From contig JAHFFN010000001.1 in assembly GCA_023247915.1 (NCBI GenBank), positions 9,417 to 73,416 on the forward strand: DNA of 64,000 nt. Reading direction: 5' to 3'. Below, piece by piece: positions 9,000 to 24,612 of the stretch. Positions within the stretch are counted from its first letter, which is position 1. The number at the start of each line of letters is the position of its first letter. The notes below the pieces were generated by a model, which did not search any database, was not told the origin of the DNA, and saw only the letters and a list, made by a program, of their open reading frames with translations. The DNA is from Candidatus Omnitrophota bacterium (GTDB taxonomy: Bacteria > Omnitrophota > Gorgyraeia > 2-02-FULL-51-18). The translations under genes were made by a program, and so were the position numbers.

Positions 9000-9852
9000 G
9001 TTTTTTTCCTCGTTTTAGAAGAACGACCGGGACTTTCGATGAAAGACGCGCGCATTGGGTGAAATGACTTGCCCCCAATTTTTTTGTGGAGTGCCTTTCA
9101 ATTCCATACGAACAGCGGAGCAATTCTACAAACGCCTGCCGAGGATCCAATGAGCGAATTTGAACCTTGGGGCTTTCTTTTAAAACATAAATTTTTCGAA
9201 GCGGCGCATTCTTTTTGAAAAATGATTTCCTTTTTAAAATGGATCGCTTTTTAGATCCCGGCTCAACCAAAGGCGCTTCCCTAAGAGAAACTTTTAAAAA
9301 ACGCGCGGCGTCAGGCCATAATTTTATTTGTGGAAATGCCGGAATCACCTGAAAACCTTTTTTGGGATCCAGAGCCAACGCATTATCGGTAAGCAGCGGA
9401 TAGCCTCTGGCATGAAATAGGGCGACCGTCGTGGACTTTCCCTCCCCAGAGGCTCCCAAAAACGCGATGGCACCCTTTTTGGAAGCGACCGCGGATCCGT
9501 GCAACACAAGATACCCTCTTTGCTCAAGAATAATCGACAACGCGGCGCCTAACAACACCAATCGCAACACTTTGGGGCTCCCCTTGCGATCGGGATCTAC
9601 CCAGATTTCCTTTCCATCCCGCACCAGCAGAGACGCTTCATTTTTCCAATGAAGAAACACGCGATTTGGATTTTTTGAATTAAACGAATGGTCTCGAAAA
9701 TGCGGGCTTTTTTGAAAAACTTCGCGAGAACTCAGTGGTTTGGAGATAATTTTGATGTCTACCGGTTTTCGCCCCGAAGAAAGTTCGGGCAAAAAAAATT
9801 CGGAGGAAATATTTAAACCAAAAGCGTTATAAAGAAACTTTTTCTTGGGCAA
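8950..9852 (-). CDS. HPr-kinase-like lasso peptide tailoring kinase
   Basis: 300 aa. LVLHGSAVASKKGAIAFLGASGEGKSTTVALFHARGYPLLTDNALALD matches the HprK C-terminal P-loop domain. The gene lies immediately downstream of the precursor ORF with a 3-nt gap. It uses a TTG start. Confidence 0.7.
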   Translation of the reverse strand: MPKKKFLYNAFGLNISSEFFLPELSSGRKPVDIKIISKPLSSREVFQKSPHFRDHSFNSKNPNRVFLHWKNEASLLVRDGKEIWVDPDRKGSPKVLRLVLLGAALSIILEQRGYLVLHGSAVASKKGAIAFLGASGEGKSTTVALFHARGYPLLTDNALALDPKKGFQVIPAFPQIKLWPDAARFLKVSLREAPLVEPGSKKRSILKRKSFFKKNAPLRKIYVLKESPKVQIRSLDPRQAFVELLRCSYGIERHSTKKLGASHFTQCARLSSKVPVVLLKRGKKLADLPALIQAVERDLL

Positions 9853-9855
9853 AAA

Positions 9856-10011
9856 TCAGGTGGCAGCTCGGCTCGCGGCATCGTTGGTTCGCGTTCCCTT
9901 GGCGGTTATTTTGTGAATAGTTCCATAAACCGTCAGTTTTGGGGAAGAATAGCTTTTTTTCTTGGAGGATTCGGGCTTTGTGGAAACGCGATTTTCTTTT
10001 TGTTTTGACAT
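9856..10011 (-). CDS. Lasso peptide precursor (A) gene, 51 aa, not present in the ORF track
   Basis: Manual translation gives MSKQKENRVSTKPESSKKKSYSSPKLTVYGTIHKITAKGTRTNDAASRAAT, with TGA at 9856-9858 and an in-frame TAA two codons upstream of the ATG. The leader carries a YSSPKL motif like paeninodin-type leaders (YSKPSL). A Thr lies near the cleavage site. The predicted core, AKGTRTNDAASRAAT or KGTRTND..., has Asp at position 8 or 7 for macrolactam formation and a Ser/Thr-rich tail. Confidence 0.65.
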   Translation of the reverse strand: MSKQKENRVSTKPESSKKKSYSSPKLTVYGTIHKITAKGTRTNDAASRAAT

Positions 10012-10034
10012 GGGTTAATTATAACAAATCCCTC

Positions 10035-11558
10035 TCAAATATCAACAATATCATCCTGGCGAACACTGAACATCTTTACCACATAGTCGGGACTTTGAGA
10101 TCCGAAGAAAACATGGTTTTTAGCTTGATAAAAGCCTAGCCGGATCAGCCTTTCATCCAGGTCATTGATTGCCTCGGTTTGAACGAGATTCATGGCAATA
10201 AACCACACCCGCGAAAATTTCTGAGTCCCGTGCCTGCCATTAAAATCTCTCATATCCACAAAAGTGGCTTTGGTGGAAAGATTTAATTTTTTTTGATAGT
10301 AGTCCATGATCGAATTTGGTTTCGCGATGGCGTCATTCTCCCCCGCGTGCTCCAAAACATAGCGAAACCCGCCCTCAAAATCGTCCTTGGATTCAATATC
10401 CGCGGGAAGATAAATCGCCCGAAGACTTTCTCTAAACAGCGCCACGCTGAATAAACTTAAAAATAGAAGCAGAAAAGCTCTATTTTTTAAGGTGGTCACA
10501 CTTTTGGCTAGCCATAGAATGATGAAAATTGCCACAAATCCAAAATAGCGGGACTTCAATCGGCTGTGATCCAATATCACGACGATCACAGGAAACGAAA
10601 GAATAGCGATCGCGATGAATTTTTCTTTTAGTTCGCTTTTAAAAAAGCGCCACGCGATCAAGCCCCCGGCGATGGCAAAGCATAAAGCTGAAAAACAAAA
10701 AGACCAGGAAGTTTTAAAATAATGCAGGACATCTTTATTAAAATTAATATCAAAAAACGGCCCTACGAGAGAGCTCCAATAGATGCAAAGTATTTTTCTC
10801 GGTAAAATCCACGGCCGGCTAAACAACATCTCGTCCCGACAAGAGATGGATTCGTTAAAAGGAAAGCAGGTGTTGTAAAAATGATAGAGGCACAACAAAA
10901 GCGCAGGCACGCAAACCACAAATACAACGCCTTGAAACCATAATGTTTTTTTTGGGGTCTGCTTGACCCAAACCATCCATGCATGCGCCCCAGCAATCAC
11001 CCCAAACCAAAACCAAGAAAAATGAGTCGTGTAAATAGCGGCGGCGGCTGTCAGGCCATAAACGATTCCCCACTTAGCAGGTCGCGCGGCGCGTGTCATT
11101 CTTAGAAAAAAGTAAGTCCCCCACGTATAAAAAAGAACCGGTAGTCCATGATTTCTAATTTCATTGGTCAGGTGAATAAAATAAGGTGAGATCGAAACAA
11201 AAAATGCCGCGAATAGGGCGGTTCTTTTCTCGTAGTACTCTTTTGCTAGAAAATAAACCCCAACGATCACTCCGACACCCGCTATCCATGAGGGCAGTCG
11301 AAAAGCAATTTCATTAAAACCAAAAAAACGTATCGATTCGTGCAGTAAAACAAAATAAAGCGGCGGGTGGACGTCCTGAATGCAATAAAAAATTCCCGCT
11401 TTTAAAGGCGCCTTCGCGATAAGAATACTGGCCCATTCATCGCCCCAAAACGCATGACCCCTTAAAAGCATCCAGAGTCTTAGAACAACCCCTATAAAAA
11501 AGAGAATCAAGAACATGGTTTGCTTTTCAACCACAAAGATAAAAGGGTGGCCTGCCAT
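10035..11558 (-). CDS. GT-C family membrane glycosyltransferase (PMT_2/ArnT-like)
   Basis: 507 aa polytopic protein. HPPLYFVLLH...FRLPSWIAGV...ISPYFIHLTNEIRNHGLP is the conserved N-terminal block of the ArnT/PMT-like family. It is paralogous to 15230-16705. Confidence 0.65.
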   Translation of the reverse strand: MAGHPFIFVVEKQTMFLILFFIGVVLRLWMLLRGHAFWGDEWASILIAKAPLKAGIFYCIQDVHPPLYFVLLHESIRFFGFNEIAFRLPSWIAGVGVIVGVYFLAKEYYEKRTALFAAFFVSISPYFIHLTNEIRNHGLPVLFYTWGTYFFLRMTRAARPAKWGIVYGLTAAAAIYTTHFSWFWFGVIAGAHAWMVWVKQTPKKTLWFQGVVFVVCVPALLLCLYHFYNTCFPFNESISCRDEMLFSRPWILPRKILCIYWSSLVGPFFDINFNKDVLHYFKTSWSFCFSALCFAIAGGLIAWRFFKSELKEKFIAIAILSFPVIVVILDHSRLKSRYFGFVAIFIILWLAKSVTTLKNRAFLLLFLSLFSVALFRESLRAIYLPADIESKDDFEGGFRYVLEHAGENDAIAKPNSIMDYYQKKLNLSTKATFVDMRDFNGRHGTQKFSRVWFIAMNLVQTEAINDLDERLIRLGFYQAKNHVFFGSQSPDYVVKMFSVRQDDIVDI

Positions 11559-13375
11559 AAAAGCGTGGCATCCTCATGCGTGGCGTTTTTTAAAAATCGG
11601 TTGTGACATTCCTTAAGAATCGCCAACTCCATGTACGGCGCGATCGCTTCTGTTTCTTCAATCACTTCTTTCCGGATCATGGCCTCGTGGACATTTCTCA
11701 AGGTTTTAATCAAATGCCCGCCCATATAAATTTTTCCACCGCGACGTCGGACTTTTTCTGGCAAAATATCTTTTAGACTTCTCCTCATTAGCGCACGAGT
11801 CCAGCCCTCTTCCAATTTTTGACGAGCCGGTAGCGAGAAACAAAATTCCACGAGCCTCCTGTCAAAAAAAGGGTAGCGATGTTCGATAGAAAAAGGGGCG
11901 CTTAGATGATTCATGGCTATTATATTTTCCGGAATTAGGCCGGAAGACAACTCGTTTTGCTGTTCCTGCCGAACTGTCAGAACCGCCTGCATTTGATACC
12001 CGAGATAATGCTCGGCGCGGCGTTTCAATTTTATTTTTTTTGCGAAATCTCGATTGATCGCCGTCCCGTCCATCCACAAGGGTTTCCCACGCCAGCGAAC
12101 CTGCCGCCATGCCTTCCAAACCGGCGCCGGCATCAAAGGCCTCAACGCTTTCTGCCACAACACCCTCTCCACCGGCTGTTTCAAATGTTCTGAAAGCGCA
12201 CGAGCTTCTTTAAAAAGCTTTCCCCAACGAAACCGGCTTAAAAGCTCGGTCAAATGCGCGTAGCCTCTCCCCACCACTTCATCGCCGCCGTATCCGTCCA
12301 GCAAAACTCTTACCTTCCGTTTTTGCGCCTCGGGGTACACGCCCGCTTGAAACAAGGATAAATTAGCGATATAAGGCCCGTCTAAACGCCGAAAAGCAAC
12401 CTCCGGATCTCTCAGTGGTGTCATGGAGTCCGCTTGAATTTCATGCGGTACCTTTCCTGGCAAGTCGTTCACAGATTGGATAAATTCTCTTTCGTCGCAT
12501 TCTGGAAATTGATCGAATACCAACGAAAAAGTATTCACGGAGCCTGCCATACTGACAATGGAGGAGGAGTCCAGCCCTCCGCTTAAAAGCGATCCCGCCG
12601 GAAATGCGCTTCGCAAACGGCAGTCCACCGCTTTTTTAAAAAGTTCTCTAAATCGCTCCTCACATTCCCGATCTGGCAATGAAAGAGGCTGGCTATCAAG
12701 TTCCAAACTCCAATATTTTTTAAGGACAATTTGACGCGGAGCGATGGTGAGCGAATGCGCCGGCGCCAGACAACGTATATTTTCATAAAATGTGATTTCT
12801 TTGTCTTCGCCAGACCAAAGAAGAAAATCACCAATCATGGTCTCGTTTAGGCGTGGCTCAATTTCAGGGCAACAAAAAAGCGCCTTGATCTCAGAGGCAA
12901 AGGCAAACAATCGATCTGATTTGAAATAATAAAAGGGCTTTATTCCAAAAATATCTCTCGCACAAAAAATTTGTTTTTTATTTTCATCCCAGATCGCGAA
13001 AGCGAAATCACCCAAGATCTTGTCGGGACAGGTCTCTCCCCACTTCTGGTAAGCCTTCAAAATCAAGGCGCTGTCGGAAATATCCGTTTGATTTTCGTTT
13101 TTTCCGTAAAAAATTTCGAGAAGCTCTTCCCGGTTATCAACGCGCGCGTCGGCAGTGATGGCCAGTCGTGATTTTTCGTCAAAGAAAGGAAGTTTTTCGG
13201 GGATGGACTCAGGAGTCGTCCAAAACATCCGGTGAGTGAATCCCACGGAACCCCGGCTCCAAATACCGGACGCATCGGAACCTCTAGGAACCAAGCTTCG
13301 ATTCATTCCATCCAATAGTTCGGATTCTACCGGCCTTGCGTCTCGATAATAAACTCCCGCGAGTCCGCTCATCAA
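11507..13375 (-). CDS. Lasso peptide cyclase (asparagine synthetase B-like, C protein)
   Basis: 622 aa. The AsnB fold has a PP-loop SGGLDSS. The N-terminus is MMSGLAGV, with Ser where AsnB has its glutaminase Cys, consistent with a cyclase rather than a true Asn synthetase. Confidence 0.75.
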   Translation of the reverse strand: MMSGLAGVYYRDARPVESELLDGMNRSLVPRGSDASGIWSRGSVGFTHRMFWTTPESIPEKLPFFDEKSRLAITADARVDNREELLEIFYGKNENQTDISDSALILKAYQKWGETCPDKILGDFAFAIWDENKKQIFCARDIFGIKPFYYFKSDRLFAFASEIKALFCCPEIEPRLNETMIGDFLLWSGEDKEITFYENIRCLAPAHSLTIAPRQIVLKKYWSLELDSQPLSLPDRECEERFRELFKKAVDCRLRSAFPAGSLLSGGLDSSSIVSMAGSVNTFSLVFDQFPECDEREFIQSVNDLPGKVPHEIQADSMTPLRDPEVAFRRLDGPYIANLSLFQAGVYPEAQKRKVRVLLDGYGGDEVVGRGYAHLTELLSRFRWGKLFKEARALSEHLKQPVERVLWQKALRPLMPAPVWKAWRQVRWRGKPLWMDGTAINRDFAKKIKLKRRAEHYLGYQMQAVLTVRQEQQNELSSGLIPENIIAMNHLSAPFSIEHRYPFFDRRLVEFCFSLPARQKLEEGWTRALMRRSLKDILPEKVRRRGGKIYMGGHLIKTLRNVHEAMIRKEVIEETEAIAPYMELAILKECHNRFLKNATHEDATLLWQATLLSLWLKSKPCS

Positions 13376-14328
13376 TCCTTGACCCGGATGAGCAGGCCTT
13401 TAAACATCAAACGCTTCACATAAAACTTAAGATCTTTTTCCAAGCGAACAGGATCCACCTCGTATTCTTTTTGTATCGCCCGGGACACCGCTTTCACGTC
13501 CTTTAATTCCTCCAAAAGCTCCCAGAAATGCGAAGCGATGCCGTCGAGCCGTAAACAAATCCTGGTTTTCGCGTTCACGACGAGTCGACCACTAGCGGTT
13601 CTTTTTGAGACCACCTCGTCCGGAATCTGCACCCGCGACACTGGCCGATTGTCAGGTCGGCGCGTTTTCATTTTAGTTAAGACAGTCCCGTCCGAACCGA
13701 GCCTCATAAACGAAACTCCGCGTTTTTTCGGCAGAAACCAACCAGCCAACACTGTTCTTGGGTTTCGACCCGTCGGCATCGTGACCCGGTGCTGAAGCTT
13801 TTTGGAGATGCGAAATAAAAAAGCATTTCCAAATCCGGTGTTGGCGATCTGTGCGGTAATCTTTTTGGAAAACCTGTTCCTTATTTTAAAAACCCCGCCC
13901 TGATAAACACGCTCGCTTAAATTCACGCTAATCCCTACATAACGCAAATGCCGGACGTCGATGTCATTGTGCCAATGATCATAATGGCCGCGGCCGGGAA
14001 TTAAAGAATACATGCGCCCGGCAAAACACCCGATTTTTTTACAACCCGTGATTCGTTCCACCGCTTTAAAAAGCGCGGGATCGTTGAGCAGAAAATGCAT
14101 CGCGTTAATCCCGGTATTTTGTCTCATGCAAGACTCGGTGGCGATGCCCCTATCTGTTCTGGGGTAAAATTCAGCCGAACGAACCGTCTGTTGAATAAAT
14201 TTCAGTAAGGATTTATCTAGAAATTTTTGGATTTTAATTAGATTCGTTTGAGAATATTTATTTTGAACTTTCCTTAGATTTTTTTTAGAAAAAGAAATAT
14301 GAGTGCCCGTCTTTTTGATTTGTATCAT
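13372..14328 (-). CDS. Fe(II)/2OG oxygenase domain fused to a C-terminal PqqD-like RiPP recognition element (RRE)
   Basis: The start is probably MIQIKK at 14328, forming an ATGA overlap with the upstream paralogue's stop. The N-terminal domain has HxD (WHND), a distal His (QHRVT) and RNPRT...GWF (prolyl-4-hydroxylase-like 2OG-binding Arg/Thr). The C-terminus, ICLRLDGIASHFWELLEE...QKEYEVDPVRLEKDLKFYVKRL, matches PqqD. Confidence 0.6.
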   Translation of the reverse strand: MIQIKKTGTHISFSKKNLRKVQNKYSQTNLIKIQKFLDKSLLKFIQQTVRSAEFYPRTDRGIATESCMRQNTGINAMHFLLNDPALFKAVERITGCKKIGCFAGRMYSLIPGRGHYDHWHNDIDVRHLRYVGISVNLSERVYQGGVFKIRNRFSKKITAQIANTGFGNAFLFRISKKLQHRVTMPTGRNPRTVLAGWFLPKKRGVSFMRLGSDGTVLTKMKTRRPDNRPVSRVQIPDEVVSKRTASGRLVVNAKTRICLRLDGIASHFWELLEELKDVKAVSRAIQKEYEVDPVRLEKDLKFYVKRLMFKGLLIRVKD

Positions 14329-15194
14329 ACGTTTTTTAAAAAACCATGCGCGTTTAAATGATGAGCCAAAGACAAAACATCTTTTTCTAAAACATCGGGA
14401 GCTACACGATATTCCTTTTGAAGTTCCCGCAAAGCTAATTTCAGATGAGGTCTCTTTTTCAGATGATCCCACATCTTTCCCGCTACCGGGTCTAGCTCGC
14501 ATAATAAACTACGTTTTGGATCAAAAATAATTCTTTTTTTGTCTTTGGAATATTCCAAAAGTCCCTGGGGAATCTTCCATCGCGCCCCGTTTTTTTTGTT
14601 TGGCCTTACGACAATTTTTTTAGAACGCTCAAATGGTAAATCCGCACACGCGCAAAACCACCCGGTAAAAGCCGTTTTTGGATTTTTACCTCCGATGGCC
14701 GTCACGCGATGTTGCAAAAAACTAGCAACGCGAAACAAAACAACGTCCCCCAGTCCTGTGTTTTTGATCTCATGTAAAATATTTTTAGAACCGCGACGGC
14801 GTATCTGAAGAATCCCGCCTTGATAAGGTTTGGGACTCAAATTTAGGGTCAGCGCGACTCGCCGACCATACACCAAATCGTTATGCCAACGCATGGAGTC
14901 TTGATAACTGGGCAAAAGACGATAAGTGCGCCCGGTAAAAGAGCGGATACCGGCACAGCCGGTAATTTCTTTTATTTTTTTTAAAAGGGAGGGGTCATTC
15001 AACAGAAATTGAAGCGTATTGGATCCGGCGTTTTCACCGATCATGGACTCCGATCCACCGGAATCTTGATAGCGGAATGGTTTTGATTTCTTAAGAGCCT
15101 TCAGAATTTCCCGCAACAGTTTCTTGTTCAGGAATTTAGGCAAGCGAACATAATGATGCTTCTGATAAAATCGGCGCAGAGAGCTCGGAACCAT
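14325..15194 (-). CDS. Fe(II)/2OG oxygenase-RRE fusion, paralogue of 13372-14328
   Basis: 289 aa. FLLNDPSLLKKIKEITGC...WHND...YQGG...QHRVT...KNPKT..TGWF is followed by the PqqD-like LLCELDPVAGKMWDHL...LQKEYRVAPDVLEKDVLSLAHHL. Confidence 0.6.
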   Translation of the reverse strand: MVPSSLRRFYQKHHYVRLPKFLNKKLLREILKALKKSKPFRYQDSGGSESMIGENAGSNTLQFLLNDPSLLKKIKEITGCAGIRSFTGRTYRLLPSYQDSMRWHNDLVYGRRVALTLNLSPKPYQGGILQIRRRGSKNILHEIKNTGLGDVVLFRVASFLQHRVTAIGGKNPKTAFTGWFCACADLPFERSKKIVVRPNKKNGARWKIPQGLLEYSKDKKRIIFDPKRSLLCELDPVAGKMWDHLKKRPHLKLALRELQKEYRVAPDVLEKDVLSLAHHLNAHGFLKNV

Positions 15195-15229
15195 GGACGT
15201 ATTTTACCTCAAACGAGTATAATGAATCC

Positions 15230-16705
15230 ATGTTCCTATTTCTTATTTGCTTGCTTGGAATGGCACTGCGTTCGGCGCTTCTTTGGACAAATCGATCCTT
15301 TTGGTTTGATGAATGGGCTAGCATTGCCGTCGCCCAACACCCTTTAAGCCAAGGGATTAAAATTTGCGCGCTGGACACTCACCCTCCCCTTTATTTTGTC
15401 CTTCTGCGCCTTTCAGCCGTACTTTTTGAATTCAAAGAATGGGCTTTTCGTCTGCCATCCCTGGCGGCGGGTATCCTGCTTTTAGTTTTTGTGGCGCTTT
15501 TAGCCAATCGTCTTTTTGGAAAAAAAGTGGCGCTTCTATCCGCTTATTTTGTCGCGATCTCTCCTTATTTCATCCATCTTTCTTATGAAATAAGAAATCA
15601 CGGGCTTCCGATTCTTTTTTATGCGGCAGGAAGTTTTTTATTTTTTAAAATGATTGAAGGTTCTGATCGTAAACGTTGGCAATGGAGTTATGCCCTAACG
15701 GCCTGCGCGGCGCTGTACACAGTGCATTTTGCCTGGTTTTGGCTAACCGGGATTTTGGGGCTTCATTTTTTTCTTTCGCGAAATGAAGAAAACGCCAAAA
15801 AAGCCCTAAAGATTCAGGCGCTTGTGCTTTGCTTGGGAATCCCCGAACTCTGTCTTTTGGCTTACAACGTCCTGCATCGTGATGAAATCAGAGGATACAA
15901 TCTGGCTTCGCTTCATAAAATCGCGATTGCCGCCAAAGAAATTGTTTTTGTTTACTGGAATATTCTCGTCGGGTCGCGATTTTACATGCACTGGTCTTCA
16001 TCTATTTTTAGCGCCATGCGATCTTCCGTATTTTTTTGGCTGTCTTTGACTTTATTTCTTCTGGCAAGCGTTTCGATTGTCTATGAATTTTCCATGATTT
16101 TTAAAAAACAAAAAAGTCTTTTCTATTTTCTTATTTTTATTTGTTTTGTTCCTGTTTTTTTGGTGAGTCTCATCAACACCAACCGTCTGGACGCGCGCTA
16201 TTTTTCATTTGCGGCACTTTTTTTGATCCTCATTTTTTCAAAGAGCCTGATCGATTCCCATTCGAAAAAAAGCCGAATCGCGCTGATTGTTCTGACCACT
16301 CTCGTTTCGCTGAACGGGTTTGTTTACCTCGCGCAAACCCATGTTGATCCAATGCACCGGGACGATTATCAGGAAATGACGCGCTATGTTTTAACGCATG
16401 CTAAAAAAAATGATTTGGTTTTTATCAGTTCCCCGGTGGTGAATTATTATTCGAAAAAACTCGGGATTGCTTCTCAAGCCGTCCTTACCGAGGATCTAGG
16501 TGCATGGACTCGGAGCAAGGCGAGCCACATAGAAAGAATCTGGATTACCGGGGGAACTCCGTTAACTTCTTGTTTTTTTAAGGAGCTCGCGGATCGAATG
16601 GAAGCTCTGGGATTTGTTCCTGAATTAAAGTTTATCGATTTTGGCGGGGAAGACAACAATACCGGCCTGAACGTATTTAAGAATCAGGCATTCTCTAAAA
16701 AATAA
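15230..16705 (+). CDS. GT-C family membrane glycosyltransferase (PMT_2/ArnT-like)
   Basis: 491 aa. HPPLYFVLLRL...FRLPSLAAGILL...ISPYFIHLSYEIRNHGLP is homologous to 10035-11558. The gene is divergently oriented from the oxygenase-RRE genes. Confidence 0.65.
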   Translation: MFLFLICLLGMALRSALLWTNRSFWFDEWASIAVAQHPLSQGIKICALDTHPPLYFVLLRLSAVLFEFKEWAFRLPSLAAGILLLVFVALLANRLFGKKVALLSAYFVAISPYFIHLSYEIRNHGLPILFYAAGSFLFFKMIEGSDRKRWQWSYALTACAALYTVHFAWFWLTGILGLHFFLSRNEENAKKALKIQALVLCLGIPELCLLAYNVLHRDEIRGYNLASLHKIAIAAKEIVFVYWNILVGSRFYMHWSSSIFSAMRSSVFFWLSLTLFLLASVSIVYEFSMIFKKQKSLFYFLIFICFVPVFLVSLINTNRLDARYFSFAALFLILIFSKSLIDSHSKKSRIALIVLTTLVSLNGFVYLAQTHVDPMHRDDYQEMTRYVLTHAKKNDLVFISSPVVNYYSKKLGIASQAVLTEDLGAWTRSKASHIERIWITGGTPLTSCFFKELADRMEALGFVPELKFIDFGGEDNNTGLNVFKNQAFSKK

Positions 16706-17934
16706 GTTTTCTCTAACCATTCTTGGATAGCGGATGCGACTACTTGATGGCCGCGTGGATTCCAGTGCACATCAATTTTATAATTTAGGTTTTGATCGGG
16801 AAACGCGTTTACTTCTTTTCTTAAAAGAGGCGTTAAATTTAAAAACGGTATTTTATTTTTTTGAGCTAACACTTCCACCCTCTTCTCAAGAGTCGTGGTT
16901 TCGGTCAGCCATTCTTTCCGGACAACAAGCCCCAGCTGAATAGGGAGCGTATCAAATCCGGGGTCATACTGGTAAGGACAGGGCGCGTAGATAATTCCGA
17001 CTTCTATCTTGCGCGATTGGCACTTTTGAATCATTTTAGAAAAAATAGTCTCCATCGCCTTCCAGTTCTTTTCATCCTTAGGCGTAGGGATGTCCAACGA
17101 GGAAGTCCAATAGTCCGGCCGAGTCAAAGCGAACTTGACTCTATAAAATCCCACCCGGCTCTCATTAATCTCTTGAATGGCATCCGCAGGCACTTTTTTA
17201 AGCCAGTCATCGATTCTTCCTTGAGAAACATGACGGAGTCTGGCCTCTTGAAGAGTCTCTTTCACAACATCCAAACTTTTGGCTGATTCCCATTTCCTCT
17301 GCCCATGGTAACAAGCTTTTCTTATAAGCATAAGTAGCTTTGGAAATAAAATTTTAATTTTTTCTTTTAAAAAATTCCTTAAGGGGTTTAGTGAGTCGGT
17401 GGATGGCGCCTCATCATTTCCCGCCTCATCCACACCACTGTCTCCCGTGTCTTCCACATCGTTGGCATAAATCACAAACAAAACTTTATTGGGGTGATAC
17501 TTTAAAGCTGTTTCCGAAAGCATGCGCGCATATTGAGGAGGCCCGAAACCGGAAATTCCGCAATTAATAAAAGAGATTCTCTTGCCGGACTTACGGTATT
17601 GATTTTCAAGAATCGCCGGAAAAGTTTGATCCGCTTCTACCCCTTCCCCCTCAACAAAAGAATCGCCAATCACCACCACTCTCTCTTCATCCGGAGATCT
17701 TTTAAACGGAATATTTTGATAACGAATTCCCTGACTGTTGGATTTGATGTGATAAATACCATTTAAAAATTTATTCGTGGACTCATAATATCGAGGGTAC
17801 GACGCCTTGGAGGATTCTCCCTCAACCCAAACCAGTAAGGGCTCCACAACAAAACACATCGCGATAAACGTTAAAAAAAATAAGGCGCTGTTTTGGATTA
17901 TTTTAAGAAGCTTCATTAAAAAATCCTTGCGCAT
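16684..17934 (-). CDS. SGNH/GDSL-fold protein of the AlgX/AlgJ type (putative polysaccharide O-acyltransferase/esterase)
   Basis: 416 aa. N-terminal TM segment, then GDSFVEG (GDS block), IYANDVED, and DVHWNPRGH (the DxHW motif of AlgJ/AlgX). Confidence 0.55.
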   Translation of the reverse strand: MRKDFLMKLLKIIQNSALFFLTFIAMCFVVEPLLVWVEGESSKASYPRYYESTNKFLNGIYHIKSNSQGIRYQNIPFKRSPDEERVVVIGDSFVEGEGVEADQTFPAILENQYRKSGKRISFINCGISGFGPPQYARMLSETALKYHPNKVLFVIYANDVEDTGDSGVDEAGNDEAPSTDSLNPLRNFLKEKIKILFPKLLMLIRKACYHGQRKWESAKSLDVVKETLQEARLRHVSQGRIDDWLKKVPADAIQEINESRVGFYRVKFALTRPDYWTSSLDIPTPKDEKNWKAMETIFSKMIQKCQSRKIEVGIIYAPCPYQYDPGFDTLPIQLGLVVRKEWLTETTTLEKRVEVLAQKNKIPFLNLTPLLRKEVNAFPDQNLNYKIDVHWNPRGHQVVASAIQEWLEKTYFLENA

Positions 17935-19150
17935 CCAACCATGATTTAATTGTTTTGGCCGCGACGCGATGGCCTTCGGGCGTCCAATGAACGTCGATGT
18001 GAAAATTAAGCGGCTTTTCCGCGTGTGGGTAAGCTTCCCGCAGTGCCGGCGTCAGGTCTAAAAAAGATATTTTTTGCGCCTCCGCCAAAGACCGGAGACG
18101 TTTTTCAAATGCCGTTTCCTCGGTCAGCCATTTTTTCTCCACTCGAAGCCCAAGATTCACCGAAACGGGGTCATGATCGGGGTCGTACTGAAAAGGGCAA
18201 GGAATATAAATCATCGCGATTTCCACTCCCCGGCTCCGGCAGTGATCGAATATTTGATTTAAGGTTTTGTCCACGGCTTTCCATCGTTCTTCGGATTCGG
18301 GATCGGAAATATCCAGGGACTGTGTCCAAAAATCGGGCTCCAACAAACCCGCGACCAACCGGTCATGGCAAATCATGAAATGATTTGTTTTTTCGAGATC
18401 TTCTTGAGGAATTTTTTTTGCCCATTCTTCCACTTTTTTAGCAGGAATGCCCTTCCGCATCGCCTCGGCTCTTCCCAATTGAATGACGTCAAATTGTTGA
18501 TGTCGATCCCTGAAATACCGGTAACGCATCAGAGCACCTCTAAGTAAAGTGTACAATCTCGGGAAAATAGCGTGCGCCGCTTTCTTGATCCCCTTTGGTT
18601 CTTCCGGGATCTCTTCTAAGTGAAGCGGCGTTTTCCAATCCGTTTTGCTTATTTCTTGAAGTGTCGGCATGTCATGCAAATCATTCGCGTAAATAGCCAA
18701 AAGCAATTTATCCGGATGATAGGAGAATCCGATCTTGTCTAAAACTCTCGCGTACACATCGGGATTAGCCCCTGAGATGCCACCATTAATGAATAAAATA
18801 TTTTTGTTTTCTTCCGAATATTCCTTTTCAAGAAGAGCCGGGAAAGCCTGTTCAGCTTCCACTCCCAGTCCTTCAACAAAGGAGTCCCCTATAACCAATA
18901 CTCTAATCTCCTCGGGAGATTTTTTTTCTTGGGAAATGTCAGGGTAACGGATTCCTTCACGATTGGCTTCAAAGTGATACGTGCGGTTGATCAGATTCAT
19001 TTCTTTTTTAAAATAGGCGGGATACGACACTCTTTTTTCGAGATTTTGCGAAAAACCGCACCACTCGAGCGTCTTTTCGGACAGCCCCAGCATCAAAAGC
19101 GTCGTGAATAAAAAAATGCATGCGTTTTTGAAAAACAATCCGCTCTTCAC
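17903..19150 (-). CDS. SGNH/GDSL-fold AlgX/AlgJ-like protein, tandem paralogue
   Basis: 415 aa with the same blocks: VIGDSFVEG, IYANDLHD, DVHWTPEGH. Confidence 0.55.
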   Translation of the reverse strand: MKSGLFFKNACIFLFTTLLMLGLSEKTLEWCGFSQNLEKRVSYPAYFKKEMNLINRTYHFEANREGIRYPDISQEKKSPEEIRVLVIGDSFVEGLGVEAEQAFPALLEKEYSEENKNILFINGGISGANPDVYARVLDKIGFSYHPDKLLLAIYANDLHDMPTLQEISKTDWKTPLHLEEIPEEPKGIKKAAHAIFPRLYTLLRGALMRYRYFRDRHQQFDVIQLGRAEAMRKGIPAKKVEEWAKKIPQEDLEKTNHFMICHDRLVAGLLEPDFWTQSLDISDPESEERWKAVDKTLNQIFDHCRSRGVEIAMIYIPCPFQYDPDHDPVSVNLGLRVEKKWLTEETAFEKRLRSLAEAQKISFLDLTPALREAYPHAEKPLNFHIDVHWTPEGHRVAAKTIKSWLDAQGFFNEAS

Positions 19151-19860
19151 CGGTTTTTTCCCTTGGCTCTGATTTTAAAAATCATCCCAAAAGCGTCGGC
19201 TAATTTCCCGATAGTCAATTTGGAGTCGCCTCTTTCGCGGTTCAAAAAATCAATCGGGATTTCGACAATATCGAAACCTTTCCGGTGACACACTTCCAAC
19301 ACTTCGAACACAATCGAAGGCCCCGTCGAAACCATCGAGCTCAAATCAATGGATTCCAGAGCCTTTTTTCTAAAACAACGAAAGCCGGAGGTGCAGTCCT
19401 TGTAAGGCATTTTCAAAAATACGCGTATTGCTCCGTTAGCCATGCCGCTCAACGCGTTCCTCAGCATTCCCCTGTTTTTGATAGCGCCTTTCTTTAGATA
19501 TCTGGAACCAATCACGACATCATGCGAGCGCGCGGCTTCTAAGAAATCAGGGATTTTTTCCGGCGCGTGAGAACCGTCGGCATCCATCTCCAAGATAGGG
19601 TCATAGCCTTTTTGGACGGCGTATTCAAATCCTTGCACGCCGGCAAGGCCGCGGCCGCGGGCACCTGTTCGTGAGATAAGCTCCACTTGAGAAAAATCAG
19701 CAGCTATTTTTTTCACGCATTCGCCGGTTCCGTCAGGAGAGGCGTCATCCACGACGATCAGACGGGCTTCGGGAATCAGCCGAAGAATTTGCCTTAAAAG
19801 CGGTTCGATATTTTGCGCTTCATTGTAGGTAGGAATCACAATCGCGGGAAAAGAAGTCAA
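19147..19860 (-). CDS. GT2 polyprenyl-phosphate sugar synthase (Dpm1/ArnC-like)
   Basis: 237 aa. IPTYNEAQNI, VVDDASPDGTGE and EMDADGSH are the GT2 DxD-type blocks of polyprenol-monophosphate hexose synthases. Confidence 0.75.
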   Translation of the reverse strand: MTSFPAIVIPTYNEAQNIEPLLRQILRLIPEARLIVVDDASPDGTGECVKKIAADFSQVELISRTGARGRGLAGVQGFEYAVQKGYDPILEMDADGSHAPEKIPDFLEAARSHDVVIGSRYLKKGAIKNRGMLRNALSGMANGAIRVFLKMPYKDCTSGFRCFRKKALESIDLSSMVSTGPSIVFEVLEVCHRKGFDIVEIPIDFLNRERGDSKLTIGKLADAFGMIFKIRAKGKNR

Positions 19861-20303
19861 CGATTCAAAGCCTTATAAATCGGAACGAAGTGTTCTTTTT
19901 TTTGGCTCTCGCCCAACACCACACGACCACCGCTCTCCATCCAAGCATGCGCTTCCAAAGAAGCGCTCGGATTCTTACTGACACCGATATAAAGCTCCGA
20001 GGCATGCCCCGACTCTAGGAAAAGAGCCTGCGCAACCAGGGCTTTGGACAAGCAATTTTCGGCAAAACGGCTGTGAGCACTGACGGATTCAATCGCCCAA
20101 ATTATTTTTTCTTTGGAAATACCGCTAAGAACATTCCTCCGTTTCAACAGAAGAATAGGTTGAAATAAAAACTGCATCTGCTTTAGAGGAATAAAAAAAG
20201 TAAAAAAACGACTCACATTTAAAAGAATAAATACTCTCACGATTAGTTTTTTTTCGACCCAGGGTATTTGAAAAAACCGTTTTTTAATTTTCTTTGGATT
20301 CAT
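19857..20303 (-). CDS. Lasso peptide leader peptidase B2 (transglutaminase-like cysteine protease)
   Basis: 148 aa. ENCLSKALVAQALF...ELYIGV...LEAHAWMESGG matches the Cys...His core of lasso B2 (PF13471-like). Confidence 0.8.
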   Translation of the reverse strand: MNPKKIKKRFFQIPWVEKKLIVRVFILLNVSRFFTFFIPLKQMQFLFQPILLLKRRNVLSGISKEKIIWAIESVSAHSRFAENCLSKALVAQALFLESGHASELYIGVSKNPSASLEAHAWMESGGRVVLGESQKKEHFVPIYKALNR

Positions 20304-21553
20304 CGCTTCAGTCTATCAAAAGCCGGCTTGAGAGCAACAGCGGAATAAAAAATAAAGACAAAGTCCATCGGTGCCCGGAGCCGCGTCGCGGGCCAATAAA
20401 ACGCGTAAATCAAAGTCAGGCTCACGACAATCACCCAAAGAAAAATATCTTCTCTAAAAATAGACCGTCTTCTCAAATAAATACCGGCAATCGCTGTGAT
20501 AAAAATAAAAAGATGTGTCACTGAATAGGCCGCCTCCACAAGGAGACTTCGACTAGACGCTCCTGAAATCATAGGGCTTCCGTCGGAGCCGGTCTTCAAC
20601 TGCACCGACTCCTCACACAGATAAAACGGAACCAATCTCGGGTGAAATAAATAAAGAATGTTAAGCGCTTTGAGTCGTATCGTCCTCCAAGGATGCTCCC
20701 GCATAAACCGGAATGCTTTTTGTTGGAAAAGACGGTCGACCTCTGTTTCGGAAGTATCTTTAATTTTAATACCATCCGCTTGAAGCGTCTTGAACGCATA
20801 GTCACCCAGCACATCCACGCTGTATCGCGGGATCACATAATCCGAGTATTCGCAATTGCCTTTAAACAAATTGTAACCACTGCGAGTAGGGACGATGGAG
20901 CCGGTGAGAGTAAAATTTCTGTAAAACATCGGAAATGCCGTCACAAAAACAACTAAAAAAAGAATGGCCGCGTCCCGGAATCTTTTTTTGAATAAAAGAA
21001 TCCCCATTCCTATCAGGACAACCGGGAAAATAACAAATCTCGTTAAAATCGTAAGCCCCAGAGCTAATCCGCAGCCCGCCGCCGCCCTCCATTTTTCAGT
21101 GTTCAAATAATAATACGAGGCTACAATCAAAAGTGTCATAAATAATGGTACCTCGATGATCCCAACAGATTGTCGGATAAGATAAGGATGAAAAGAATAC
21201 AGAAAGACCGCGATCAATCCGACGCGGGATTCTCGCGTAAGCGCCACACAAAGTTTATACAGAAAAATAGTTCCCAAAGCACTGACACCGATTTGAGCCA
21301 TCATCACCCAAAAAAATTGATCCCCAGACAGCCTTCGAAATACCGCCAAAAACAACGGGTAAAACGGTTCATACCAAGAAGTCTCCATTCCTCCGTCAGT
21401 CCACCTCCAACGATGCAACAATTCTTGCATCCAGTATGGGTTCCCGGAGGTTCGAAGTGTTTTAAAATAAAATGAGAGGTAAGAAAACCGGGGAATAAAA
21501 CTCAGAGAGAAAATTAAAAAATATTTTCGCTGATGGGGGAAAAAATCCATCAA
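20300..21553 (-). CDS. GT-C-like polytopic membrane glycosyltransferase
   Basis: 417 aa with about 10 TM segments. It is placed between B1 and B2. GT-C family assignment rests on hydropathy pattern and context only. Confidence 0.4.
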   Translation of the reverse strand: MMDFFPHQRKYFLIFSLSFIPRFSYLSFYFKTLRTSGNPYWMQELLHRWRWTDGGMETSWYEPFYPLFLAVFRRLSGDQFFWVMMAQIGVSALGTIFLYKLCVALTRESRVGLIAVFLYSFHPYLIRQSVGIIEVPLFMTLLIVASYYYLNTEKWRAAAGCGLALGLTILTRFVIFPVVLIGMGILLFKKRFRDAAILFLVVFVTAFPMFYRNFTLTGSIVPTRSGYNLFKGNCEYSDYVIPRYSVDVLGDYAFKTLQADGIKIKDTSETEVDRLFQQKAFRFMREHPWRTIRLKALNILYLFHPRLVPFYLCEESVQLKTGSDGSPMISGASSRSLLVEAAYSVTHLFIFITAIAGIYLRRRSIFREDIFLWVIVVSLTLIYAFYWPATRLRAPMDFVFIFYSAVALKPAFDRLKR

Positions 21554-21843
21554 ATTTTTATTTCAATAAGGCGGGCATCCGCCAATTGATTCAAAACCTG
21601 TAAGATATCCTTCTCGCACGATTCTGTATCCACATCGTATTCTTTCAAAACCGCTTTTTGGATATCCCGCACAAAAATAGGCTTGTCTGAAATAAGATTC
21701 CACACAAACGCGCCCACCGTGTTCAAACCGTAATACATGCCCGCTTTGAGATCCAACACCACCGCCTCTCCGGACAAATCACAAGAAACCTGGTCTTTAG
21801 CCAGACAAACCAAAGCATCCAAAGACAGAGCATTGTTTTTCAT
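21550..21843 (-). CDS. Lasso peptide B1 protein (PqqD-like RRE)
   Basis: 97 aa. AVVLDLKAGMYYGLNTVGAFVWNLI...IQKAVLKEYDVDTESCEKDILQVLNQLADARLIE is a canonical PqqD/RRE. Confidence 0.8.
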   Translation of the reverse strand: MKNNALSLDALVCLAKDQVSCDLSGEAVVLDLKAGMYYGLNTVGAFVWNLISDKPIFVRDIQKAVLKEYDVDTESCEKDILQVLNQLADARLIEIKI

Positions 21844-23342
21844 GTTTCGACCCCCCGAGGAGTTCTTCTATAAACTTCTAAGTCATTTTTCGGAGGTTTT
21901 ATTTTCCAACGGCCAAAACCAATCTCCCCTTTATGATTTGGATTGGAATCTAGAGTGTCCTGCAAAAACCATTCACCCCCAATGTCTCCTTTATAATCTG
22001 CAATAGAATCCGGCCGGATAATCACAATCGACACGTCTTTTTTGTCTTTTTCGGTAAATGTGCTGTATGTCCATAAAAATACATGCGGAGTAATCGCCTT
22101 AACCGCGTAATACGGCAAAAAGCCGCAATACACGACGTCCTCTTTTTTGACATGTTTTTTGATAAAAGTCTCGACCATCCGGTAATCCCTAGCCTCGTAT
22201 TGATACAAAATCAGAGCCAGTCTTGCAGGTAGTCCAGCGATCAACACGAAGGAGATGATGGCCGCCAAAAGAATTTTCTTTTGTTTAGCGCCCAGAGAAA
22301 AATCAGCAGAAAACAGTGCCATAATAACGCAAATTCGAAGCGGTAGACTGATTGTCCAGGAATACTGCACGTGAAAATCCCATACCAGCCACATGATCAA
22401 CGGAAAAAGAAGAAATACCGTTCCGGCAAACCGAAGCCGTGTTTTTTGTTGAGACGTTAGGTAGCGTCCCGCCTTCCATAAAAGGAATAACGCAACAATA
22501 AAAAGAAAGATAGCCCCAACCGAAGCATTTTGAATCACCAAAAGTCTTTGTTTTTCCTGCCAAGTTTGGCCAAAAAAAACATACTGTTTGTTATAAGCCA
22601 AAAAAGCGTCCATCGCGTCATGCCAGCCAAAAAATGCCAGCATCCACGGGATCCCTGAGAAAAACCCGAGTCCCATCATAATAAATTCGTCCAAAAATGC
22701 TTTTTTAAAATAAAAAAAGAAAAGCACTGCGATAAAAATACCATAAAGCACTAGTGGTAACTGTACCCAGGGACAAATAAAAGCCAAAACAAAAATTGAA
22801 ATGAACCGTCCGTATTTATTTTTGATTGAAAAAGAACACAAAAGAGCGGCGGCCAACAAAATTGCCAGCGCATCCTGTCTTCCGCTTCTATAAGAGATCG
22901 TCGCCCCATGTCCACAGAGAGCCAGCACTAAAAGCGTCAAGCGGCCGCGGGTATCCTTGAACCAACCGAATCTCAGCGAGGACAACCATAAAAAAAATCC
23001 TGCCAAAGCCGCAAAAAAATAACCCATGGATCGGATTGTCGTAAGGCTAAATCCAAATATTTTAAGCCAAACAGATAAAAGAAGCGGGTAGAGTGGCACG
23101 TAGCAAGACCAAAAATCATGCCCACTTTGAAAAGGCCACGCATTGGAAACAAATCCTTCACCTAAATATAGATTTAGGCCGGGACTTACATAAAAAACTT
23201 CGTCATACCAAGGAACTGGTGATAAATGAGCGGTGAATAAATTAACTAAAAAGAAAACACTTAAAATCAACGCAACCCACCATGATTCATTTTTGCAGGA
23301 CATACGGCACTCCATAATCTCCGCTACTCCCCCCCTGCGCAT
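21840..23342 (-). CDS. GT-C-like polytopic membrane glycosyltransferase
   Basis: 500 aa. Many TM segments and an N-terminal periplasmic-loop WYDEVFY (DE motif). The start may be an internal Met. Confidence 0.4.
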   Translation of the reverse strand: MRRGGVAEIMECRMSCKNESWWVALILSVFFLVNLFTAHLSPVPWYDEVFYVSPGLNLYLGEGFVSNAWPFQSGHDFWSCYVPLYPLLLSVWLKIFGFSLTTIRSMGYFFAALAGFFLWLSSLRFGWFKDTRGRLTLLVLALCGHGATISYRSGRQDALAILLAAALLCSFSIKNKYGRFISIFVLAFICPWVQLPLVLYGIFIAVLFFFYFKKAFLDEFIMMGLGFFSGIPWMLAFFGWHDAMDAFLAYNKQYVFFGQTWQEKQRLLVIQNASVGAIFLFIVALFLLWKAGRYLTSQQKTRLRFAGTVFLLFPLIMWLVWDFHVQYSWTISLPLRICVIMALFSADFSLGAKQKKILLAAIISFVLIAGLPARLALILYQYEARDYRMVETFIKKHVKKEDVVYCGFLPYYAVKAITPHVFLWTYSTFTEKDKKDVSIVIIRPDSIADYKGDIGGEWFLQDTLDSNPNHKGEIGFGRWKIKPPKNDLEVYRRTPRGVET

Positions 23343-24612
23343 TGATAAAAGTCATCATCAGCGGATAAATCGCCGCCGTCGCTACTAGAGATACGATAAT
23401 CCATGCGCCCACCAAACACCGCGCGGCCTTGTCCCCAAACCATGGAGTGACGCGGCGATAAATCGCAAAAAAACCGAGCGCGATCGCCACAAACACATAA
23501 GGCATCGCCGGAATCATGTGATGCGGATAGACATCAATAGGAGACATCAGCATAAATAGCGGGAAAAAGATCAAAGCAGCAAAAGCGGTCGCGTATTCGG
23601 GTTCCGCGTCTCTGGTGTGCCCTAATTTGATCACTTCCACGAGACCCTCCATGAAAGGCCACGCCAGAATCGCTGTCGCCAAATGAATGAATCCTGTAAG
23701 CCACCCACACGGCCAACGCATAAATTTCATAAATTCATCATCAGCGAGCGCATAGGTCGCTTCCCACCCTGTCGCAAAACTGAAAGGGTGTTTCAGTGGC
23801 ACCATGTGCGCGTTGGAAACAAAAATGGATATAAATTTAAACGGGCTAATGAGCTGCAAGCGCGCTTCGCCGGTAAAATGCGATACCATCGTAAAAACAG
23901 CCCATGGAAAAAATAATGCCACGGACACTCCGATGCCGGCCATCAAACTGGGTTGATGAAATTGAACCTTCCTGCGCCAGGCTGTCCAAGCCAGCGCTAC
24001 TGCCAAAGCAACCGTCGGTAAATACATCTCCGAAGCCAAGGCAATTAAGCATAAAAGAGGAAAAATCGCGCGACTTCTTGATTTTTGAAGCACGCGAACA
24101 AAAAGAGCTAACGCTGGAATCAGAAAAGGCAGGATGAGATCCGGTGACCAAAGTTTGCGTGAAAAAGTGATTGCCCATGGGGAAACCGCAAAAAACGCGA
24201 GCGCAACCAACGCGATCCAACGCCAACGAGAACGAAAAAGACCATACGCCGCCGCCGCAAGACCTATGATGTTGAGCAGGACAACCCACACCACTGTCCC
24301 AAGAGGCGTGCGACCCAGCCATCGAAACAACGTCGTGGTATAAATAAATAAAGGCAATTCATAGATATCGCCCATGCTTGTTTTTAGCCCATAAGGAAGA
24401 AAAGTGGGATGTTTTAAAAAATTTCCCGCCATCACATAAGCATTTTGCTCATCTTCTTTCCATTCCATCGATGAAAAAAAAGATAGGCGGAGCCACGCTC
24501 CGATAATGACCACAAGCACAAACCAAATCCAATGGATAGAGTCTTTATTTTTATCTTCTTTAGGAGATAATCGCGGCATGGATAGCCTCGCAAACGGTTT
24601 CAATATTTTCAC
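23287..24612 (-). CDS. GT-C-like polytopic membrane glycosyltransferase
   Basis: 441 aa. EWKEDEQNAY acidic motif in the first loop, followed by many TM segments. Confidence 0.4.
   Translation of the reverse strand: MKILKPFARLSMPRLSPKEDKNKDSIHWIWFVLVVIIGAWLRLSFFSSMEWKEDEQNAYVMAGNFLKHPTFLPYGLKTSMGDIYELPLFIYTTTLFRWLGRTPLGTVVWVVLLNIIGLAAAAYGLFRSRWRWIALVALAFFAVSPWAITFSRKLWSPDLILPFLIPALALFVRVLQKSRSRAIFPLLCLIALASEMYLPTVALAVALAWTAWRRKVQFHQPSLMAGIGVSVALFFPWAVFTMVSHFTGEARLQLISPFKFISIFVSNAHMVPLKHPFSFATGWEATYALADDEFMKFMRWPCGWLTGFIHLATAILAWPFMEGLVEVIKLGHTRDAEPEYATAFAALIFFPLFMLMSPIDVYPHHMIPAMPYVFVAIALGFFAIYRRVTPWFGDKAARCLVGAWIIVSLVATAAIYPLMMTFINAQGGSSGDYGVPYVLQK

Follow-up and report, generated by a model that had tools for sequence, protein, structure and literature searches.

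Does the short open reading frame (ORF) that directly precedes an HprK-like kinase gene in a Candidatus Omnitrophota genome encode the precursor of a lasso peptide, and what would the surrounding genes make of it? The question is raised by a stretch of 64,000 nucleotides from contig JAHFFN010000001.1 of assembly GCA_023247915.1 (positions 9,417 to 73,416 of the forward strand), referred to here as the window, in which positions are counted from its first letter. An earlier note on this DNA had read the ORF at 9856-10011 as the A gene of a kinase-associated lasso cluster. This reading is supported by a match to the curated lasso peptide model NF033528, by motif-bearing small ORFs in 70 of 80 related loci, by a cyclase (C) and a B2 peptidase that exceed their curated cut-offs, and by the presence of B1, nucleotidyltransferase (N) and exporter (D) genes. 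Judged from such sequence evidence, the 51-aa ORF very likely represents a genuine lasso peptide precursor gene, and the probability that it serves as the precursor (A) gene of a lasso peptide pathway, with individual steps assigned by homology, is put at about 0.85. The gene, its predicted parts and the adjoining kinase gene are as follows.

9856..10011, minus strand: precursor (A) gene, 51 codons plus TGA, delineated by translation, the leader hidden Markov model (HMM) described below, NF033528 and public gene calls
9901..10011, minus strand: predicted leader peptide, residues 1-37 (MSKQKENRVSTKPESSKKKSYSSPKLTVYGTIHKITA), with the cut placed by the spacing Y(-17)xxP(-14)xL(-12)...G(-8)...T(-2) and a register test
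9934..9951, minus strand: YSSPKL, codons 21-26, the YxxPxL motif to which recognition by the RiPP recognition element (RRE; RiPP, a peptide synthesized ribosomally and modified post-translationally) is ascribed in the literature, aligned to the family consensus
9904..9906, minus strand: Thr36, predicted penultimate leader residue T(-2), corresponding to the invariant Thr of 93 family leaders
9859..9900, minus strand: predicted core KGTRTNDAASRAAT, 14 aa, derived from the leader register, with the Asp7 codon at 9880-9882 and the codon of the C-terminal Thr14 at 9859-9861
8950..9852, minus strand: HprK-like kinase (K) of 300 aa with an HPr-kinase-like profile, its TTG start codon 3 nt past the stop of A

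Read on the minus strand from the ATG at 10011 to the TGA at 9856, the 156-nt ORF translates exactly as it had been quoted (MSKQKENRVSTKPESSKKKSYSSPKLTVYGTIHKITAKGTRTNDAASRAAT and a stop; 51 aa). Its in-frame 5' context, N-stop-P-M, confirms a stop two codons before the ATG, so that translation can begin only at this ATG and the ORF cannot extend further 5'; no in-frame GTG or TTG occurs within it. The ORF leaves 23 nt to the stop of the upstream gene (10035-11558) and 3 nt to the TTG of the kinase gene, and its proposed location directly 5' of that gene is thereby borne out. The description of the ORF as unannotated holds for its function but not for the gene call, since NCBI, ENA and Logan gene calls already list it as an unnamed gene (P0001, a singleton cluster).

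The evidence that carries the assignment comes from the leader. Using a 10-sequence kinase alignment as seed, a comparison set of 80 loci was collected from one-genome-per-species bacterial and archaeal assemblies, with kinase homologues at 32-40% identity; these homologues are mostly cyanobacterial, and the loci span cyanobacteria, Acidobacteriota, Gemmatimonadota, Chloroflexota, methanogens and others. The earlier note had named homologous clusters without a conserved small ORF, and a leader motif without conservation combined with a reading frame not preserved at synonymous sites, as grounds for giving up its proposal. What was found is that 70 of the 80 loci carry at least one small ORF with the leader pattern [YFW]xxPx[LIVMF]xxxGx[LIVMA]xx[LIVM]T, mostly located 15-600 nt 5' of the kinase gene on the same strand. 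An HMM was built from the 93 distinct leaders of small ORFs that adjoin kinase homologues of other genomes, the window itself being excluded, and was searched against the 2412 stop-to-stop six-frame segments of the window. The 51-aa ORF was the sole match (E=1e-8), and since the runner-up reached only E=0.14, no second precursor is detected in the window by this model. The strict regular expression, applied to all six frames of the window, likewise returned a single match, the same ORF. The uniqueness of both matches places the leader motif beyond chance, and the leader of the ORF conforms to a motif conserved across the family, as the alignment of the consensus mKKpYntPkLtvhGsVeeIT with KKKSYSSPKLTVYGTIHKIT of the ORF illustrates. 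NF033528 (NCBIfam "lasso peptide", lasso_cyano) matches residues 18-37, which fall within the leader, with E=3.5e-6 and 26.9 bits. In characterized systems, YxxPxL functions as the leader motif recognized by the RRE (PMC10368454, PMC13381572), and the leader Thr has a role in recognition by B2 (PMC10368454).

The remaining class-defining lasso genes are all present in the window, where they form two blocks, together with the exporter and nucleotidyltransferase genes found in related clusters.

11507..13375, minus strand: lasso macrolactam cyclase (C), NF033535 with 669 bits against a cut-off of 525
19857..20303, minus strand: lasso leader peptidase B2, NF033537 with 68.3 bits against a cut-off of 33, and PF13471 with E=7.6e-20
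21550..21843, minus strand: stand-alone RRE (B1), matched by a B1 HMM from the related loci with E=2e-33, and by NF033536 with E=2.7e-19 and 69 bits, below the cut-off of 80
7860..8999, minus strand: NTP_transf_5 nucleotidyltransferase (N), PF14907 with E=6.8e-39
6169..7884, minus strand: ABC exporter (D), PF00005 and PF00664

Homologues of these proteins recur in the 80 kinase loci (C and B2 in 65 loci each, D in 56, N in 27), the usual order being B1-B2-C-A-K-(N)-D, with C typically just 5' of A. The combination of cyclase, B2 peptidase and B1 RRE that marks the lasso class is present in the window, as is the kinase gene adjoining A that marks kinase-tailored lasso peptides. The A, B1, B2 and C set previously put forward for co-expression is encoded in full, but B1 and B2 are not adjacent to A.

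A promoter-like site lies directly in front of the ORF.

10018..10045, minus strand: TTGATA-16 nt (TG)-TATAAT, 11/12 match, ending 6 nt before the ATG of the A gene

It is the best site in a 9.5-kb scan and the sole sigma70-like site of at least 11/12 in the window. About 0.7 sites of this quality are expected by chance across the window, and its placement before the ATG is the notable point. By this arrangement, the A gene would have a promoter of its own and a leaderless or near-leaderless mRNA. A -10-like hexamer followed by 6 nt and an ATG is found at three gene starts of the cluster, at 10009-10023 (minus), 15215-15232 (plus) and 15192-15209 (minus), with the sequences TATAAT-TAACCC-ATG, TATAAT-GAATCC-ATG and TAAAAT-ACGTCC-ATG, respectively, which hints that the organism uses leaderless mRNAs.

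Where the leader ends determines the predicted product. In characterized precursors, the YxxPxL motif occupies leader positions -17 to -12, and the last leader residue but one is usually Thr (PMC10368454). Given the spacing of Y21, P24, L26 and T36 in the ORF, both rules agree on a cut after Ala37. A register test, which counts Asp or Glu at core positions 7-9 across 96 distinct family precursors, gave the following outcome.

T(-1): 41 of 96 with an acid at core 7-9; acid of the ORF at position 8
T(-2): 76 of 96 with an acid at core 7-9; acid of the ORF at position 7
T(-3): 74 of 96 with an acid at core 7-9; no acid of the ORF in this range

Together, the YxxPxL rule and the register test favour the T(-2) cut over a cut after Thr36, and the T(-1) and T(-3) registers were rejected on the family-wide acid test and the literature rule. 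Cleavage is therefore predicted after Ala37, so that the core would start at Lys with Asp44 as its seventh residue, and a seven-residue Lys1-Asp7 macrolactam ring is predicted. The cut that had been drawn after Thr36, between HKIT and AKG, becomes the less likely of the two options originally offered; the placement of the ring Asp at core position 7 or 8 stands, the residue being Asp44 in either case (position 7 with T at -2 and position 8 with T at -1).

The first alternative keeps the same pathway and moves the cut by one residue, to after Thr36, which would release the 15-mer AKGTRTNDAASRAAT with an eight-residue Ala1-Asp8 ring. Its calculated mass is 1489.76 Da in linear and 1471.75 Da in dehydrated form, against 1418.72 Da for the linear 14-mer. 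It has the attraction that Ala is a classical first residue whereas Lys1 is unprecedented among the 96 family members, and that eight-residue rings are far commoner in the family than seven-residue ones. Such a cut, however, would put Thr at -1 and YxxPxL at -16 to -11, contrary to the published rule (PMC10368454), and would follow the register with the poorer acid count (41 against 76 of 96); Ala at -1, which the cut after Ala37 entails, is seen in eight other family leaders. The shifted cut is accordingly regarded as unlikely, and the Lys1-Asp7 prediction is retained.

The family contains its own control on the ring acid. At three loci, L036:2351-2701, L040:5434-5784 and L049:8859-9961 (the last with four tandem copies), kinase-adjacent ORFs with the same leader have cores in which positions 7-9 hold neither Asp nor Glu (as in GGIGRGRSKARSGRGRG...), and no cyclase homologue was detected at any of the three. 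The coincidence of acid-less cores with a missing cyclase match in the same loci indicates that ring acid and cyclase go together. These precursors, from Gemmatimonadaceae and Phycisphaerales, look like linear relatives of the lasso system that resemble the linear polyphosphorylated peptides (LPPs; cf. PMC13381572).

In a further group of ORFs, a C-terminal Peptidase_S74 domain (PF13884) continues in frame from a lasso-type leader and short core, namely at L016:9439-9963 and 8835-9398, L029:9333-9956, L041:9382-9927 and L064:9296-9976. Peptidase_S74 is the self-cleaving "chaperone of endosialidase" domain; it was detected with E values of 3e-11 to 2e-10 at three scanned loci, while the fusion at L029 was assigned by sequence similarity. 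Like ordinary precursors, the fused ORFs lie directly 5' of HprK-like kinase genes, and autoproteolysis before an SDRxLKE motif would set the C-terminus of their cores.

The kinase gene next to the ORF bears on both translation and tailoring of the peptide. The profile of the kinase family best matches the HPr kinase/phosphorylase structures 1jb1, 2qmh and 1ko7 (E 6e-10 to 1e-8), the P-loop GASGEGKST is conserved, and most of 120 kinase homologues carry PF07475 or PF27840. The TTG start and the 300-aa form are supported by the N-terminus F-x-Y-x-A-Y-G-L-x-I-x-S, which is conserved in nine homologues; public gene calls list the kinase as a shorter protein of 236 aa (P0003). The position of this TTG, 3 nt past the A stop, implies translational coupling of A and K. 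Assignment of the kinase to Haft's HprK-related kinase A/B systems was tried and rejected, as its scores lie far below the cut-offs (32.4 bits for TIGR04352, the HprK-related kinase A system, against a cut-off of 200 bits).

Lasso-associated HprK homologues act on the linear precursor, and PadeK, ThcoK, SyanK and PsmK modify its C-terminal Ser (PMC8498205, PMC6993621). BsfK phosphorylates Ser3 and also accepts an S3T substitution (PMC10368454), while Thr is not accepted by LppK (PMC13381572). The present ORF ends in Thr and thus lacks the C-terminal Ser acceptor of the PadeK/ThcoK/SyanK/PsmK type. Among 89 family cores, Ser is the last residue in 37, a 4-fold enrichment over the 9.9% Ser background, whereas Ser or Thr at core position 3 (11 of 89) shows no enrichment. 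This difference favours Thr14 over Thr3, so that the C-terminal Thr, already proposed as a candidate phosphorylation site, is most likely the phospho-acceptor and Thr3 the alternative. A further modification may follow: in pseudomycoidin, the attachment of one or two hexoses to the phosphate depends on PsmN (PMC6993621), and the NTP_transf_5 protein, as a parallel to PsmN, may by analogy decorate the phosphate here.

Several observations weigh against the precursor reading. Both curated leader models fall short of their thresholds, NF033528 with 26.9 bits against 33 and NF033521 (lasso_leader_L3) with 13.2 bits (E=0.073) against 19. A word-indexed homology search with the 51-aa peptide returned only the peptide itself, which leaves no relatives close enough for a test of purifying selection; a second metagenome copy (L001) is 99.86% identical, with three single-nucleotide differences in 2149 nt and none inside the ORF, and says nothing on selection. 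No Shine-Dalgarno sequence lies at a usable distance from the A-gene ATG, yet many genes of the window also lack one. In the layout, B1 and B2 are 10-12 kb away from A, and C and A have a glycosyltransferase gene between them. The predicted product is itself atypical for the family: the ring acid is at position 9 in 37 precursors and at position 8 in 25, with position 7 as the sole ring acid in only 4 of 96; core position 1 is mostly Gly, Gln, Ala, Val or Asn and is Lys in no other of the 96 precursors; a C-terminal Thr occurs in only 2 of 89 cores; and in the tail, AASRAAT, Arg11 is the sole bulky plug, so that a threaded topology is not assured. Finally, the kinase has D156-N157 (9382-9387) where at least 90% of 35 homologues have D-D, which makes one of the two metal-binding Asp residues an Asn. 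PsmK requires its corresponding pair, D158/D159 (PMC6993621), and the D-N change may have altered or weakened the enzyme.

The uncertain threading leads to a second alternative, in which the product is unthreaded or linear, either a phosphorylated and glycosylated LPP-like peptide or a branched-cyclic lactam. LPP systems share the RRE, the HprK-like kinase, the NTP transferase, an MsbA-like exporter, YxxP leaders and a capsule-locus setting (PMC13381572), pseudomycoidin lacks a threaded topology when unmodified (PMC6993621), few residues in the tail of the present peptide are bulky, and the acid-less cores of L036, L040 and L049 demonstrate precursors of the same leader type without a cyclase match. 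Nevertheless, a cyclase gene whose product exceeds its curated cut-off shares a tightly packed operon with the peptide gene, a B2 peptidase is present, Asp occupies core position 7, and no archaeal-type signal peptidase was found among the cluster ORFs scanned. LPP clusters of Bacillota, by comparison, have neither cyclase nor B2 and use an archaeal-type signal peptidase; with C and B2 both encoded, the window falls outside this group. A product of the unthreaded or linear kind is considered distinctly improbable relative to the lasso precursor reading.

Two genes next to C encode enzymes that set this cluster apart.

13372..14328, minus strand: fusion of a 2-oxoglutarate (2OG)-Fe(II) oxygenase with an RRE (PqqD), copy 1, PF13640 and PF05402, with the 318-aa start taken from the public gene call
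14325..15194, minus strand: fusion of a 2OG-Fe(II) oxygenase with an RRE (PqqD), copy 2, PF13640 and PF05402, AlphaFold pLDDT 87.5

The HxD...H iron triad is intact in both copies. The AlphaFold model of copy 2 comprises a jelly-roll (residues 1-186) and, after a disordered linker (187-201), an RRE of three strands and three helices (205-282). A PDB sequence search with the fusion gave no match, and in a fold search, the closest solved folds were the protein prolyl hydroxylases Tpa1, OGFOD1, PHD2 and bacterial P4H. Although the oxygenases are prolyl-hydroxylase-like, the core contains no proline. An exhaustive search recovered 908 representatives at E<=0.001, and about one-third of the best 150 are 300-340 aa long and cover both domains. 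No homologue of the 2OG or PMT_2 proteins was detected by tblastn or phmmer in the 80 kinase loci, and no description of RRE-fused 2OG oxygenases was found in the searchable lasso literature.

Genomic context nevertheless points to a recurrent association of such enzymes with lasso genes. At L084, C is found with a kinase, two stand-alone 2OG genes and a 61-aa precursor that passes NF033521 (25.2 bits), in which ...YETPRLVEYGNVTDITA is followed by a predicted core GENGTHFD...RGT, ending in Thr. L085, a distant lasso-like locus, combines D, PqqD, two 2OG genes and a PMT_2 gene with B1, C, A and K, and L087 and L088 contain B1 and B2 with three or four 2OG(-RRE) genes. Such contexts suggest that the 2OG oxygenase family is a recurrent lasso tailoring enzyme. 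At L082:6695-11017, the gene of a fusion protein (P0129, 338 aa) immediately follows a TldD/PmbA peptidase pair, in a locus whose gene calls include no lasso genes; the oxygenase-RRE fusion may thus also serve another RiPP pathway.

If the genes act as their homologies suggest, the pathway would proceed as follows. The 156-nt gene would be expressed from its own strong promoter as a leaderless or near-leaderless mRNA, and the leader, Y(-17)SSP(-14)KL(-12)...G(-8)...T(-2), would be bound by PqqD-type RREs, namely B1 and the two RREs fused to the oxygenases. Tailoring would take place on the linear precursor, where the HprK-like kinase would phosphorylate a hydroxyl (Thr14 as first choice, Thr3 as alternative), the NTP_transf_5 protein may decorate the phosphate in the manner of the PsmN-dependent hexose of pseudomycoidin, and the two prolyl-hydroxylase-like 2OG oxygenases would hydroxylate residues of the precursor. 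The B2 cysteine peptidase would cleave after Ala37, and the Asn-synthetase-like cyclase would join the Lys1 alpha-amine to the Asp7 side chain. The predicted product, a seven-residue macrolactam with a seven-residue tail, is KGTRTNDAASRAAT minus H2O, 1400.71 Da, and would be exported by the ABC transporter.

A third alternative is that such a pathway once existed and is now a decaying remnant, a lasso cluster split by the insertion of glycan genes and yielding no product. The separation of B1 and B2 from C-A-K-N-D, the DD-to-DN change in the kinase and the atypical core (Lys1, seven-residue ring, C-terminal Thr) would fit such a history. All genes are intact, however, and tightly packed, with 4-nt start/stop overlaps suggesting co-translated operons; both oxygenases retain the HxD...H triad, and a strong promoter-like site directly precedes the peptide gene. 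Decay therefore appears very improbable. The idea that the ORF is a chance open frame in a spacer or promoter region, or part of a structured RNA, can appeal to its length, which by itself is no evidence against chance (147 ORFs of at least 30 aa in 15 kb), to the absence of a Shine-Dalgarno sequence and to the curated HMM cut-offs not reached, but is effectively refuted by the family HMM match unique in the window (E=1e-8), a position beside kinase homologues kept in 70 of 80 loci, the exact filling of the gap between the flanking genes (23 nt 5' and 3 nt 3'), and, as regards RNA, which was rejected, the lack of any Rfam match at E<=1 for the ORF region and a fold no better than that of shuffled sequence (z=0.35).

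How does the locus relate to known systems, if the ORF is a lasso precursor gene? The paeninodin and pseudomycoidin clusters of Bacillota, with the order C-A-K-B1-B2-(N)-D, share with it an A gene directly 5' of an HprK-like kinase gene, an N gene, an ABC exporter and split B1 and B2 proteins, and their kinases modify a terminal hydroxyl residue while the precursor is still linear (PMC8498205, PMC6993621). Unlike these clusters, the window has B1 and B2 10-12 kb away, additional oxygenase-RRE fusions and GT-C glycosyltransferase genes, and a diderm host. The products would also differ, as paeninodin and pseudomycoidin end in Ser and have a nine-residue ring that joins Ala1 to an acidic residue at position 9 (pseudomycoidin, PMC6993621), whereas a C-terminal Thr and a Lys1-Asp7 ring are predicted here. 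The earlier label "paeninodin-type" hence fits the position of A directly 5' of the kinase gene but not the leader, since paeninodin-like leaders in the strict sense carry WxxP (PMC13381572) and the ORF has YSSP.

A closer parallel in the leader is offered by BsfA and BsfK of Bradymonas sediminis, which likewise combine a Gram-negative host, K and N genes, and a YxxPxL motif at -17 to -12 that fixes the cut (PMC10368454). BsfA has Ile at -2, a Gly1-Asp8 ring, a phosphorylated Ser3 and a C-terminal Asp (PMC10368454), whereas the present peptide has Thr at -2, and its family is enriched for Ser at the C-terminus rather than at position 3. Among curated models, lasso_cyano (NF033528) is the best match for the peptide, and the paired cyclase is a full member of NF033535 (669 against 525 bits). 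Typical lasso_cyano cores read QGGxxxTDVPxG..., to which the core of the ORF is unrelated, and the score remains under the 33-bit cut-off. Judged from its leader, the peptide is a YxxP-type lasso precursor, a known class, and is nearest to lasso_cyano rather than to paeninodin.

Precedents for a small ring and for hydroxylation come from xanthomonins and canucin, both of which have rings that start with Gly. Seven-residue rings are known from xanthomonins (cited in PMC7549694), and canucin is a 14-residue lasso (PMC9266682); the pair also provides precedent for hydroxylation of the linear precursor by a 2OG enzyme. Unlike the present cluster, xanthomonin and canucin clusters contain no kinase. 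CanE is a separate enzyme that is not described as RRE-fused in the reviews consulted, whereas the 2OG domains of the window are RRE-fused and prolyl-hydroxylase-like.

The glycosyltransferase gene between C and A belongs to a larger context of envelope glycan genes.

10035..11558, minus strand: GT-C/PMT_2 membrane glycosyltransferase between C and A, PF13231 with E=2e-15, overlapping the 3' end of C by 52 nt

A paralogue of this gene lies at 15230-16705 (35% identity). The polysaccharide region includes Wza- and Wzc-like genes (3329-6079), GT-C and GT2 glycosyltransferase genes, SGNH proteins and sugar-modifying enzymes, and extends to about 29 kb; the presence of MsbA, AsmA and Wza identifies the host as a diderm. 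B1 and B2 are embedded (15230-24612) among GT-C/PMT_2-like genes, a GT2 gene (19147-19860) resembling polyprenyl-phosphate-sugar synthases, and two SGNH/AlgX-like proteins. Overlaps of 4 nt connect most of the neighbouring genes, as in the run from a glycosyltransferase gene (21840-23342) through B1, a GT-C gene and B2 to GT2, and in the run of both oxygenase genes and C. Two tightly overlapping operons result, one with the order glycosyltransferase-B1-glycosyltransferase-B2-GT2-SGNH-SGNH and the other with the order oxygenase-oxygenase-C-glycosyltransferase-A-K-N-D. This organization points to a functional link between the lasso pathway and envelope glycosylation.

A bolder possibility is a new lasso tailoring route tied to envelope glycans, which would yield a Thr-phosphorylated Lys1-Asp7 lasso, hydroxylated by the two RRE-fused 2OG oxygenases and then glycosylated by GT-C enzymes on its Ser/Thr-rich core, the enzymes (PMT_2-type) using polyprenyl-phosphate sugars supplied through the adjacent GT2. 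It is proposed because lasso and glycan genes are interleaved, and because L085 again joins PqqD, two 2OG genes and a PMT_2 gene. The link of the GT-C enzyme to the peptide is a speculation drawn from gene order, and the route as a whole is doubtful, if conceivable. No description of RRE-fused 2OG oxygenases or interleaved GT-C glycosyltransferases as tailoring genes for lasso peptides was found in searchable papers.

With the precursor identified, the cluster becomes testable as a pathway, as its substrate, cleavage site, ring residues and product masses are specified. The leader is ordinary, and interest attaches less to the ORF than to the unusual tailoring genes and to the predicted product, which with the smallest ring size, with Lys1 and with Thr as last residue where relatives have Ser would lie at the limits of present knowledge. 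Kinase-type lasso and LPP clusters have been reported in capsule loci of Bacilli (PMC13381572); a similar cluster inside a polysaccharide locus of a Gram-negative (diderm) organism, with tighter interleaving, extends that observation, and its placement bears on the role of non-antibiotic phosphorylated lasso peptides.

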